64,000 nucleotides of DNA from Iphione sp. A-MEVVRFRX5 (taxonomy: Eukaryota), in assembly GCA_976226885.1 (NCBI GenBank), contig OZ320317.1, positions 95,170,001-95,234,000 on the forward strand, given 5' to 3'. The notes under the pieces are model-generated. The model worked only from the letters and a program-made list of their open reading frames with translations. It did not search any database and had not been told where the DNA came from. Every line of letters starts with the position of its first letter. Position 1 is the stretch's first letter. This document shows, in pieces, positions 17,974-26,440 of the stretch. A program made the translations under genes and the position numbers.

Positions 17974-17984
17974 CTGCCCCCCTC
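17974..17984 (-). other. Polypurine tract
   Basis: Minus strand (AA)GAGGGGGGCAG directly before the 3' LTR and abutting the pol stop codon. Confidence 0.85.
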
Positions 17985-20900
17985 TTAGACAAACTCGTCC
18001 CGAGTAACGCTAAACACTTCGTCTGCTTCAACAACGGCACAGTCCTTATCTACGCTAAGTTCAAAAATAAACTCTTCTAGGCTCAGTTCCTCAGGGATCT
18101 CTGTGGATCGACCAAACCACCGGGACAGTGTCTGTGCGTCAGCCGCCTCCGCCTCTCGGGCGAGGGAGAGTTCATGTCGTACTCCTATGACTAGTCCGTC
18201 AGCACTGCGGGCCAACCGGCTACGGCCCTTGCTCGTTCTTATCGACCACCCCTGCGGAGGGTCGGCATCACACGTGATCTGTCGTGCCGCTGCCCAACGG
18301 GCCCATATCTCTGCCTCCTGCCGATCGTCGCTCGGCCGTCGTGCTGCCTCGCGTGATATCGTCCTCCGCCGTTGCCGCCTCTCCGGGCCGTGCGGACCCG
18401 AGGAAGGCGGCGTGGCAGTCTGGTTTGTCGCCCCTCCGCCCTCCGCCAAGTGAGGGTCGGAGTCCGCTGTCGGCAGTCGCCGCTCGTTGTGGGGAGGGAC
18501 CGGCCTGGCTCCCCCCCCGTATTCGTCCTCCCCCCGTCGTGGAGGGGGCTCTTTCCCCGGGGTGGTGCTCGGTGAGGCCCCTTCGTGCGGCCCGCCACGG
18601 GGAGGGACCGGCCTGGTCTCCTCCCCCCGCCCGCCCTTCCTCCGTCGTGGGGAGGGCCTGACCCCGCGGTTGTCGCCCTCCGCCTCAATCCCACGCCGCT
18701 CGGTGTGGGGAGGGACCGGCCTGGTTCCCTCCCCGTGTTCGTCCCCCCCCGGTCGTGGAGGGGGCTCTATCTCCAGGGCCGTGCCCGCCGAGGTTCCTTC
18801 GACTGGCGCGCCACGGGGAAGGACCGGCCTGGTCCCCTCCCCTCGCCCGACTGGAGAAGGCCCGGCTTCCTCGGTGTCGCCCTCTGCGTCAGTCCAGCGC
18901 CGCTCGATGTGGGGAGGGACCGGCCTGATCTCCTCCCCATATTCATCCCCCCTCCGTCGTGGAGGGGGGCCTTTTTCCGGGGTCGTGCCCGACGAAACCC
19001 CTTCGTGCGGCCCACCGCGGGGGGGAACCGGCCTGGTCCCCTCCTCCGGTTCTTCCGTCCTCGGCCGCGGAGAAGGCTCGACCTCGCGGATATCGCCCTC
19101 CGCGCCCGTCCCGCGCCGCTCGACGTGGGGAGGGACCGGCCTGGCCCCCTCCCCGTGTTCGTCTCCCTTCCGTCGTGGAAGGGGCTCTGCGCTGCCTCCG
19201 CGCCCCTCGACGGAAGGCCGAGTCGGCTCGCTCTCCCCCTCAGGCTCGCCCACTCGCGGTGGCGTGGAGGGGTCGGGTTCCCGGGTACTGTCCCCCGCGC
19301 TGGTCTCGTGTGGCTCGACTTGAGGGGGGGCCGGCCTGGTCCCTTCCCTGGTTTCGTCGCTCTGTTGGTGCGGAGGGGTCTCCGCCTCCTGGTCGTCGCC
19401 CTGCAAGCCGTCTTCCCGCTGATCGCCGGGGAGAGGGTCTGGTTCGCTTCCGTCTACGCGCTGCCCGTCGTGGGGAGAGACCGGCCGGGTACCCCCCCCG
19501 TGTTCGTCTCCCTCCGGTCGCGGAGGGAGCTCCTGCCCAAGAGTACTGGCCTCCGTCCCCTTCTTGGCTTCTTCAAGGTCCGCGGGCGCCGGCCTGGCTG
19601 ATCCGTCATGCTCTTCCCTTCCCTGTGGTAGGGCCGGGGAGGGGATCTGCTGCTGGTCCCGCGGTGTTCCCTCTTCTTCCTGCGGTCCCTCGGTGGTCAT
19701 CGGTTGCTTGGCTCTCGAGGTACCCGGCGGCGGGGGCCCCCCTTGCCGTGGTGGGCCTGTCAGCGGAGGCCCTCCCTGGGTTGGCAGCGAGCTCTCCCCC
19801 GTGCCCGAGGGGATCCCCGGAGGAGTGGTGGCCCTTCGCGCCACGGTCGAGGGCGTTCCCGGGAGCCCAGGCCGGGTTAGTGGTCTGCCCTCCGCTGCCT
19901 CTCCTTGTTCTTCCTGTCGGAGTTCCATGGCCCGGACCGTCGCTATCGCCTGTTGTGCTTCCCACTGGAGCACCTCCGCAGCCATCTTCTTGGGGTCCGG
20001 GCCCGCCCTGGGCGCGTCGTTAGCCCCCCGGGGGGGCTCAGTCGGGACTCGAGGAGGGGCCTCCGGCGTGACGGCTTCATGTACTTCTAATATTCCACCC
20101 ACTTCAACGTACTGCAGCTCGGGGGGTCCCGCAAGTTCTTGGTCGCCGGGGGCGGCCTCCTCGTCATCCCCGGAGGCCGGAAGCTTCGCCGCAAGCTCTT
20201 CTTCCGAGGAACTCCCCTTCATCTTCTCCGTGCTCCCTGCCCCGTCGCCGGCCGGGACTGATACGACGATGGAGTCACCGAACATAGCCTTGAACATCGC
20301 CGCCACTTCGTCCACTCGTGCGGGGGGGGCTCGGGGGCCCCCTTCTTCCTGCATGCGCTTGACTAGCTCGGAAAGGTTCTCCGGGGTCGGCGGCATACTG
20401 GGTGTCGATAGCGCAGAAATGCGCCCCGTCTTCGCTTTGGTGACCTCCGGGGTAACGAGTCTCGGGGAGGCCGCTTCCTCTGGTAGGGCTGGCGGAGTCC
20501 TCTCCTCCATCAGAAGCGGCGATGGTACCTTCGGGAGCTGCCCACCTAAACGACCCACCAACGGAGAAAGGGTGGGGCCCTTACCCCGACCTCGCTTGGC
20601 CCCCTCCGACTTCTTCGGATCCTCCGCTAGTCGCCGTTTCGCGAGGGGGCTGCTCCGCAGAACGACCCCGGGCGCTGGGGACCCGAGCATTGCCCGTTCT
20701 AACTTGTCGGCTGTCTCCACCAACCTGGCCACCGTGGCCGGGGAGCTGGCCGGCGTGGCTGGATGCCTGGTTTCCAATCCCGTAATCGTATCCCTCAGCT
20801 CACGGCACAGCGAACGCGGGGACTTCTCTGTTTCATCGGTCGGAGTTGGGTCGTCGTGGCCGGTCGCGGCCGGGGGCTGCTGCCGCGCACTCTTCTTAGG

Positions 20901-25217: not shown

Positions 25218-26440
25218 TTAGGTTTCTCTGGACACTCCCGTCTAAAGTGCCCCTCCTTCCCGCAACGGAAACATCCTGTCTTCTTTTGACCTCCAGAAGT
25301 CTTCCACTTCCCCTCCAGACTTTCGATGCGTTCGGCCAACTTTAGGAGTAGCTCCTCCGTTGCTGTGGGGGTAGGCCCTGGTGCCACTTTGTTCACCTCC
25401 GCTGTTACCAACGCATTGCACCCTGCTCGGACACTGCTGCCTGTGCTCTTCCTACCTTCCCTCTCTTCCCGGTTTTTGTAGTAAGCTTCTGCAAAGGCTG
25501 CCTCGGAGACTGCGGCCCGGAATCCTTCCACCCTCTTCTGGACGATCCACTGCCTGATGCGCTCGTCCCTCACCGCCTGCACGAAACTTTCTCGGCATAA
25601 CTCCTCCGCCCAATGGCCCTTGATCCCGGGATAAGCCCTCCGGACTAAACGCTCTACTTCGTCGGCTAATTGGAGGAGGTCCTCCCCTGCCTTCTGCCTG
25701 TAAGACTTGAGTCTCTGCTTGTAGAGGTCAACCTGCTCAGGGGACTGGAATCTGGCGGCCAAGGTCTTGACTAGGGTGCGGAATGCCGCCCGTGCGTTGA
25801 CATCTATTCTAGCTGCTCTCATGGCTGCCCGCGCCGGACCCCGGAGGCAAACTCCCAGCTGCACTGCTTTCTCGCGGCTTCCCCACTTATTTGCCATCGC
25901 CACTAAGTTGAAGTGGTGGAGGTAGTCCTCCCAATCCTGGGTCCCGTCAAAAGACTCTGGCTTGACCCTGCCTCGCTGAGCCCCACCTACCTCCACCACG
26001 GCGACTTCCTCCTCCTCCTCCGCCGACTCCTCACCGCTGGTAATATCCAGTTCGGGATCTGAGTTGGACTCAGAGAAAGTTCCGTCCACCACTGTGGACC
26101 TTCCCGCGGGTGCCACCGCATCCTGGGGCTCCCGCGGGGGAATTGCCTCCGCTGCCTCCGCAGCCGGGCCCTGAGGGCCGTCTGCCTCCGTCCCCTCCCC
26201 GCCGCCCCACAAGCGGGATGGGGTCCGAGCCGGCCGCTCGGGCCTTCCTCCTTGTTGTTCCTCCACGTCGTCGACTCGGCGCCCTCCTCCTCCACTACGA
26301 GTTACTCTTCTCTCGGGTTCGTCTCCTTCCATGGGTCGTCGGGCCGACGCCGAGTGCTTAGCAGATGAAGGGTCCTGAGTTTCCTGGTCCCTTCCTCGGC
26401 GCCGGATCCCACCGCTGCCACCAATGTTAGCTTCCGCCAT
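25184..26440 (-). CDS. gag: Gag (418 aa)
   Basis: Capsid-like FDGTQDWEDYLHHF...W...K...L...LRG block and CCHC knuckle CFRCGKEGHFRREC. Confidence 0.93.
   Translation of the reverse strand: MAEANIGGSGGIRRRGRDQETQDPSSAKHSASARRPMEGDEPERRVTRSGGGGRRVDDVEEQQGGRPERPARTPSRLWGGGEGTEADGPQGPAAEAAEAIPPREPQDAVAPAGRSTVVDGTFSESNSDPELDITSGEESAEEEEEVAVVEVGGAQRGRVKPESFDGTQDWEDYLHHFNLVAMANKWGSREKAVQLGVCLRGPARAAMRAARIDVNARAAFRTLVKTLAARFQSPEQVDLYKQRLKSYRQKAGEDLLQLADEVERLVRRAYPGIKGHWAEELCRESFVQAVRDERIRQWIVQKRVEGFRAAVSEAAFAEAYYKNREEREGRKSTGSSVRAGCNALVTAEVNKVAPGPTPTATEELLLKLAERIESLEGKWKTSGGQKKTGCFRCGKEGHFRRECPEKPKPAENDKPSSQ
26406..26423 (-). other. Primer binding site, tRNA-Leu
   Basis: Plus strand ATCCCACCGCTGCCACCA equals the 3' 18 nt of eukaryotic tRNA-Leu(AAG/UAG type) including CCA, 1 nt from the 5' LTR. 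Confidence 0.9.

Follow-up and report, generated by a model that had tools for sequence, protein, structure and literature searches.

Why does one six-base word, GCGGAG, recur throughout the coding body of a retrotransposon? The question is raised by a Ty3/gypsy long terminal repeat (LTR) retrotransposon on the minus strand of a 64,000-nucleotide stretch of the Iphione sp. A-MEVVRFRX5 genome (contig OZ320317.1, positions 95,170,001 to 95,234,000; referred to hereafter as the window and numbered from its first base). A first-pass annotation had estimated about 48 sense and 15 antisense copies of the word in the internal region and about three in the flanks, and had proposed that a zinc-finger protein of the element coats it, keeping it unmethylated or active. 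Exact counting in 17974–26424 gave 48 sense (minus strand) and 16 antisense copies, close to the estimate; the flanks were indeed poor in the word, with five copies in 54,341 non-N bases rather than three. The pattern is real and non-random, and its predicted function suggests a new variant of transposable element (TE) self-regulation in which the element's own fingers would read the word.

The GCGGAG word in the element body

Dinucleotide shuffling of the internal region (500 shuffles) resulted in 9.0 ± 2.8 sense copies (maximum 19) and 2.7 ± 1.6 antisense copies (maximum 8). A synonymous-codon shuffle applied to each segment (2000 shuffles), which preserves both the protein and its codon usage, gave 18.8 ± 3.5 sense copies (maximum 31), placing the observed 48 outside the codon null, and 4.7 ± 2.0 antisense copies (maximum 13) compared with 15 observed inside coding segments. 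Shuffling of codon order gave an expectation of 11.0 sense copies. Of all 4096 hexamers, CGGAGG ranked first, GCGGAG second and CTCCGC fifth, and the top 7-mer was GCGGAGG. Many sense copies had been described as Ala-Glu written GCG GAG, and 38 of the 48 Ala-Glu pairs are spelled this way. Alanine is encoded by GCG in 39/48 cases before Glu compared with 60/208 elsewhere (p 3e-11), and in only 25/79 before other codons starting with G (p 6e-8 versus before Glu); Glu is encoded by GAG in 38/39 cases after GCG and in 167/266 after non-Ala codons. The Ala-Glu dipeptide itself is also over-represented (48 versus 28.6). The three sequence checks put forward in the first-pass annotation, namely the two sequence shuffles and the bias of Ala codons before Glu, thus all upheld the enrichment.

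The sense excess was significant in the reverse transcriptase (RT)-RNase H segment alone (6 versus 1.3) and in integrase alone (8 versus 1.6). It was not significant when tested alone in gag (5 versus 2.5, p 0.07), where each of the five copies is one Ala-Glu pair, nor in the zinc-finger segment or the C-terminal domain. Spacing of the motif was random-like (coefficient of variation 0.93 versus 0.98), indicating that it is sprinkled evenly over the body and not clustered. All 48 sense body sites lie within open reading frames (ORFs), and a tandem appearance is confined to the LTR clusters. Inflation by tandem repeats was rejected, since the repeat segment accounts for only 7/48 sense sites and the catalytic domains show an excess when taken separately. 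The fold excess was alike on the two strands (2.6× sense, 3.2× antisense), indicating a signal in double-stranded DNA; an RNA-level signal such as a packaging signal or splicing enhancer was rejected on the same grounds. The hexamer is followed by G at 53/64 body sites and preceded by G at 21/64, with no preference at the 5' position, and the true word is GCGGAG(G) with a free 5' base. Selection for the motif, or its maintenance by other means, is supported over the whole body.

The element and its parts are as follows.

17686–26712, minus strand: whole Ty3/gypsy LTR retrotransposon, with LTRs, target-site duplication, primer-binding site and polypurine tract
26425–26712, minus strand: 5' LTR, 288 bp, TG..CA, TATA box, nine GCGGAG, all sense
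17686–17973, minus strand: 3' LTR, 288 bp, nine GCGGAG
26406–26423, minus strand: primer-binding site
17974–17986, minus strand: polypurine tract
17974–26424, both strands counted: internal region, 8,451 bp, 64 GCGGAG
25184–26440, minus strand: gag, capsid-like PNMA/Retrotrans_gag matches, CCHC knuckle
25205–25211, minus strand: candidate −1 frameshift heptamer G GAA AAC in the gag-pol overlap, predicted from sequence and frame overlap
21618–25217, minus strand: pol (protease, RT, RNase H, integrase), with motif copies within the catalytic domains
17985–21434, minus strand: zinc-finger ORF, 1,149 aa from a conserved Met, in frame with pol
18478–19555, minus strand: degenerate 108-bp tandem repeats encoding part of the zinc-finger ORF tail

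The presence of LTRs, primer-binding site, polypurine tract and target-site duplication identifies an LTR retrotransposon, and the Pfam order of gag followed by protease, RT, RNase H and integrase places it in Ty3/gypsy. The gag frame overlaps a frame of 2,410 codons encoding protease, RT, RNase H, integrase, two C2H2 fingers, a low-complexity tail and a C-terminal domain. The two LTRs differ by a single mismatch, C/T at a CpG, and the 4-bp target-site duplication GTAT flanks the element on both outer sides. About 20 near-identical full-length copies were found among 40 LTR matches scored in this 1.18-Gb animal genome, and the integrase-finger region has more than 70 genome matches at ≥90%; the family of the window element (family A) is active. 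The primer-binding site, presumably of the tRNA-Leu type, has 994 more genome matches once the LTR end of families A and B is excluded. The gag ATG lies inside the 3' end of the LTR (26425–26440), with the frame crossing the primer-binding site, in all families read. In the flanks of the loci L011–L030, target sites were strongly biased to ATAT/TATA and duplicated over 4 bp.

Next to the element, a host exon at 15804–16310 (minus strand), which we take to resemble the lipoyl(octanoyl)transferase LIPT2, lies about 1.4 kb from the 3' LTR, so that the element may sit in or beside a gene. Elsewhere in the window, a 128-bp tandem duplication (98%) at 53160–53417 apparently contains a coding exon, presumably of an ECT2-like BRCT gene.

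The finger pair and word variation among families

The finger pair and the C-terminal domain are encoded after integrase.

21336–21398, minus strand: C2H2 finger 1, helix RKDNLKR, predicted triplet GAG
21234–21311, minus strand: C2H2 finger 2 (CX4C..HX5H), helix RKDDLRR, predicted triplet GCG
17988–18350, minus strand: conserved C-terminal alpha+beta domain, about 110 aa, pLDDT 87.8, omega 0.02

C2H2 fingers read DNA antiparallel, and Asp at helix position +2 is expected to go with a G after the hexamer. In a table of standard modules (PMC5260015), RSDNLVR is assigned to GAG and RSDDLVR to GCG, and the two helices of the element, RKDNLKR and RKDDLRR, match these in turn. The antiparallel reading together with the module match predicts that finger 2 followed by finger 1 would recognise GCG-GAG. 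The finger region is constrained to a degree similar to RT (omega 0.01–0.05), and AlphaFold predicted helices in both fingers (pLDDT 75–80). No RT or integrase domain was listed for any of the 69 proteins retrieved by a profile search with the finger pair. We consider it very probable, from the code match and the following family series, that the fingers bind their own GCGGAG word. The first-pass annotation had suggested the zinc-finger protein as the reader, and on the same evidence it is the most likely one.

Fourteen families of the same genome form one clade (support 96/93), all with a finger pair. In sister family B, 44+18 sites were found, a density like that of family A. Only 16 pol sites are common to the two families, of 59 in A and 54 in B, so that 43/59 differ, and 151/231 fourfold codons have changed; 30 sites present in ≥2 other family-A copies are missing from the window copy. 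The small number of common sites at a similar total indicates that density is kept and positions turn over. Finger 2 retains R..D..R in all families, the only M copy read, a broken one, being the exception, and every enriched word family contains GCG. In rows with an R..N..R finger 1 (seven of the 14 rows in all), GCGGAG was the top GCG word in six and second in D'. Where finger 1 has Arg at +6, the top GCG+NNN word begins with G in 11/12 rows; where it does not, in 0/2. Family I, with Arg at +3, gave GCGGGG, and family K, whose finger 1 (ELEGMYE) contains no Arg, has lost the G after GCG and gained TGCGT (34 versus 19.3). G after the hexamer was enriched in families with Asp at +2 (A 53/14.6, B 46/11.9, N 42/9.5) and not in the seven rows without it (C, D, D', E1, E2, M, O). 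Families N, M and O, chosen by motif clusters alone before their fingers were read, carry R..N and R..D finger cores. Two gypsy families without fingers (7 loci) had no GCGGAG excess. Scoring covered loci with a readable finger pair, leaving aside the decayed L045, L046, L055, L065 and L068–L070, as well as 6/12 motif-cluster loci without RT-integrase. Across families, the enriched word thus appears mostly to track the fingers, with F and G fitting in part.

Alternatively, a host factor (Sp1/KLF or EGR/WT1-like) or a mutational or codon-pair bias might produce the motif, the finger match being a coincidence. A 5' G is present at 7/9 family-A LTR sites, giving a GC-box-like GGCGGAG, families G and H keep GCGGAG despite a changed finger 1, and GCGGAG is also found in clusters of three in non-gypsy repeats. 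However, only 1/10 family-B LTR sites has this G, which together with the 5' base in the body led us to reject a plain Sp1/KLF GC box (GGGCGG core). The finger-less gypsy families also lack the excess, and a six-base code match combined with tracking at positions +2, +3 and +6 is improbable by chance, making this explanation a highly improbable one.

Other features of the related loci were recorded. LTR copies differ by tandem gain of sites; these are head-to-tail in A and B, and form inverted pairs of variable spacing in C (L031, 324–345) and D (L033, 296–320). In family K (L057, L062, L064), finger 1 is without basic contact residues and the LTR repeats TGCA-type words with few GCG. A non-autonomous family of 5.4–5.9 kb (L032, L035, L037, L049, L050; 5/20 loci fetched) has an LTR and gag about 95% like those of family D (L033). 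No RT, RNase H or integrase motif is present in it, and its finger ORF is only 45% identical to that of D (protein test on L037). The high-copy RT-RNase H family of L071 and L072, with an intact ORF of 1,700 aa, has a CpG observed/expected ratio (o/e) of 0.17, a CpG avoidance opposite in strategy to the finger-bearing clade. L174, L177 and L178 belong to a repeat that is not gypsy; it has an inverted terminal word and short repeats of TGCGGAG, and no RT or fingers lie nearby.

A candidate internal promoter and a predicted self-activator

The segment between integrase and the fingers may contain the promoter of the finger ORF.

21435–21680, minus strand: candidate internal promoter, with a motif cluster, CCAAT at 21540–21544, a convergent GCGGAG pair and TATAAA at 21487–21492

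This spacer varies from about 65 to 430 codons across rows and ends in a Met located 4–35 residues ahead of finger 1 in 12/13 rows. One TATAWA was found in the spacer in 7/13 rows, compared with 0–1 in the approximately 4.7 kb from gag to integrase and none after the fingers. Families A and B share the order CCAAT, convergent motif pair, TATA and, at 55–58 bases, ATG, and N and O are alike. The spacer has an omega of 0.6–0.97 with low synonymous change (pS), pointing to constraint at the DNA level. On this sequence evidence it looks like an internal promoter. It is also stop-free and in frame with pol in 12/12 rows (P(open) <0.01 in 10), suggesting that a Pol-finger fusion is likely also made, or that the lack of premature stops serves RNA stability. 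In a multi-copy relative that has gag and protease but no RT, RNase H or integrase, a finger ORF is retained.

On balance we favour, with modest confidence, the reading that the finger protein is an element-specific activator that would switch on and hold open copies of its own family. Binding being granted, net activation seems reasonably probable, its sign being taken from the layout and from analogy with foamy virus Tas. The finger ORF would be expressed from the internal CCAAT/TATA promoter carrying the same sites, resulting in positive feedback; its product would then bind the LTR (U3) cluster and drive full-length RNA. Many weak body sites might raise occupancy on the copy and protect it from host silencing or spurious chromatin, and the Pol-finger fusion, if also made, could mark new cDNA at integration. 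That the motif coat keeps the element active, as proposed in the first-pass annotation, is plausible.

Several observations weigh against the activator. Across 45 copies, motif codons were not significantly conserved site by site (p 0.30, 0.17), and TATAWA is absent from the spacer in 6/13 rows. The C-terminal domain, a candidate effector domain, offers no clue to activation. Family G, with Gln at −1 and a predicted GAA, is still enriched for GCGGAG, family F yields GCGGCA although GAA is predicted, and families H and L do not discriminate. The families A, B and N form one clade, so that the Asp+2 split is one evolutionary event, and Arg at +6 has been lost in one lineage only (K), leaving few independent changes. 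Five distant finger-bearing elements showed no standout body word (top z 3.8–6.5). One site lies between the TATA and the presumed start, a position also fitting a repressor. For the C-terminal domain, the window protein had no Pfam family and no PDB sequence match below E 0.25, no homolog was found among 7,996 candidates, there was no usable Atlas match and Foldseek gave no match at E 0.001; the best VIA structure match (Z 6.8, rmsd 3.9 over 84 residues) was no clear fold match, and such absence is no proof of a new fold.

The site between the TATA and the presumed start bears on a second role, that of a self-repressor or copy-number brake, in which the finger protein would bind its own promoters and body and limit transcription. 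A site 8–15 bases downstream of TATA occurs in LTRs and in several internal promoters, sites over the whole body would suit an elongation block or chromatin compaction, and self-control strategies of TEs are among the topics of a review (PMC6719617). We judge a brake decidedly unlikely, since the majority of LTR sites are densely clustered upstream of TATA and LTR copies gain sites in tandem, the family is in a burst with its near-identical full-length copies, and the non-autonomous relative retains its own finger ORF. The open spacer bears on a third role, restricted to the integration complex, with the fingers as a C-terminal extension of integrase gripping its own cDNA (cis preference, protection or nuclear entry). 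Even coverage of the body on two strands would suit a cDNA coat, as the stop-free connection from integrase to Met would suit such an extension. Yet the open frame may instead reflect avoidance of nonsense-mediated decay, the spacer is promoter-like, the integrase-less family retains the finger ORF, and in four distant elements the finger ORF is separate, three of them with a splice-acceptor-like tract before the ATG. A role in integration only is very unlikely.

Methylation, known systems and distribution

The activator must also be weighed against a methylation shield like that of Arabidopsis VANC, in which the finger protein would coat the body and remove or block 5-methylcytosine (5mC) across the copy. 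The motif contains a CpG and spans the whole body, host flanks are CpG-depleted (o/e mostly 0.15–0.5), and lowered 5mC reactivates LTR elements in one annelid, as reported in PMC11292947. In family A, private CpG transitions were 4.0-fold more frequent than at non-CpG C/G (267/46,071 versus 179/122,506; 34/39 copies, five without a sibling within 3% being dropped). The finger-less gypsy control (12/23 copies, 11 dropped for the same reason) gave 6.0-fold, a difference in the direction expected of a shield and not significant (z −1.6). Motif CpGs mutated at 0.73× the rate of other CpGs (odds ratio, p 0.27), again in the expected direction and not significant, and a less refined test on 25 copies gave a value of 0.96. 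Loss of CpG is clear in inserted copies, old ones being down to an o/e of 0.27–0.6, which indicates that they were methylated for much of their history. High CpG o/e was rejected as proof of protection, since a finger-less gypsy family also has about 1.0, and the protein has no VANC homology. A lasting methylation shield is not supported, nor is the earlier suggestion that the coat keeps copies unmethylated; decay averages over long silent periods, so that transient demethylation is invisible to this test. As an account of the coat, the shield is unlikely.

Among known systems, the layout fits a self-activator like foamy virus Tas better than VANC, by analogy and without membership of either. 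Tas/Bel1 activates transcription, its gene follows the structural genes on their 3' side and has an internal promoter, and response elements occur both there and in U3, as described in PMC3798896. The element here likewise has a predicted DNA-binding regulator 3' of its structural genes and a candidate internal promoter, with sites there and in U3, and in the described foamy viruses too proteins and elements differ between lineages. Activation by Tas is shown, whereas here it is predicted, in a Ty3/gypsy element with C2H2 fingers of readable code and an ORF in frame with pol; the few mapped Tas elements per promoter in that account contrast with sites that also fill the coding body here. No env or Tas domain was among the Pfam matches of the element.

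VANC motifs are described as mainly non-coding and spread by tandem repeats, with demethylation shown (PMC5735166). A dense short motif in its own family, a TE-encoded accessory protein and variable tandem repeats in that protein are features in common, and a mainly non-coding placement is not. Joint change of motif and protein, as in VANC, fits here at +2, +3 and +6, with misfits in F and G and few independent changes. Unlike VANDAL, a plant Mutator DNA transposon, this is an animal LTR retrotransposon whose motifs are largely placed in codons and are gained and lost at scattered positions, with no sign of lasting protection from methylation; GCGGAG is common to several sister families and so less family-private than VANC motifs. 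The Pfam scan of the element revealed no VANC-type domain, and C2H2 fingers instead. Spm TnpA and other transposase-derived self-activators, reported to activate cognate TE copies sequence-specifically (bioRxiv 10.64898/2026.08.24.746577), resemble the predicted regulator in acting on their own copies, but belong to DNA transposons and derive from transposase rather than C2H2 fingers. Host KRAB-ZFP and FiNZ proteins, described as C2H2 repressors reading TE sequence (PMC10547256), share the predicted mode of reading; here, by contrast, the fingers are element-encoded, and sites are gained by the element, not lost. A literature search, conducted outside Repbase, Dfam, subscription journals and supplements, revealed no gypsy-encoded C2H2 self-binding regulator and no codon-written motif coat, and nothing pertinent was found in PMC13269885.

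Fingers after integrase were also found in 5/35 metagenome loci (L133, L134, L135, L136, L141), distant gypsy elements with a C2H2 ORF after pol. The ORF is separate in four of these, and the tract preceding the ATG in three consists of pyrimidines and AG. The same arrangement was identified in a Mytilus protein and four others. Scans of viral contigs gave no match, and those of genome contigs a single 1.9-kb locus with no finger match. Judged by sequence, finger genes of this kind are widely distributed, and the coating of the body is special to the clade of this genome, strongest in A, B and N. A wider proposal, of an animal retrotransposon clade with its own sequence-specific counter-silencing, in which a finger protein would be supplied from an internal promoter and also as a Pol fusion marking new copies at integration, selection would write the word it reads into gag and pol through codon pairs, and the splitting of families would be accompanied by joint re-coding of finger and word, is tentative and on present evidence rather doubtful.

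In a 2019 review, TE-encoded anti-silencing factors are described as known only in plants (PMC6719617), against which an animal retrotransposon with its own predicted DNA reader may be set. The element is an unusually clean example of a predicted binding site shaping codon choice within RT and integrase. Its target is predictable from a known code, and the 14 families offer a ready-made series of variants in both finger and word, so that TE self-regulation and protein-site coevolution become directly testable with short peptides and reporters. The post-pol finger ORFs of distant invertebrate gypsy elements suggest that such a regulator may be a widespread and overlooked accessory gene.

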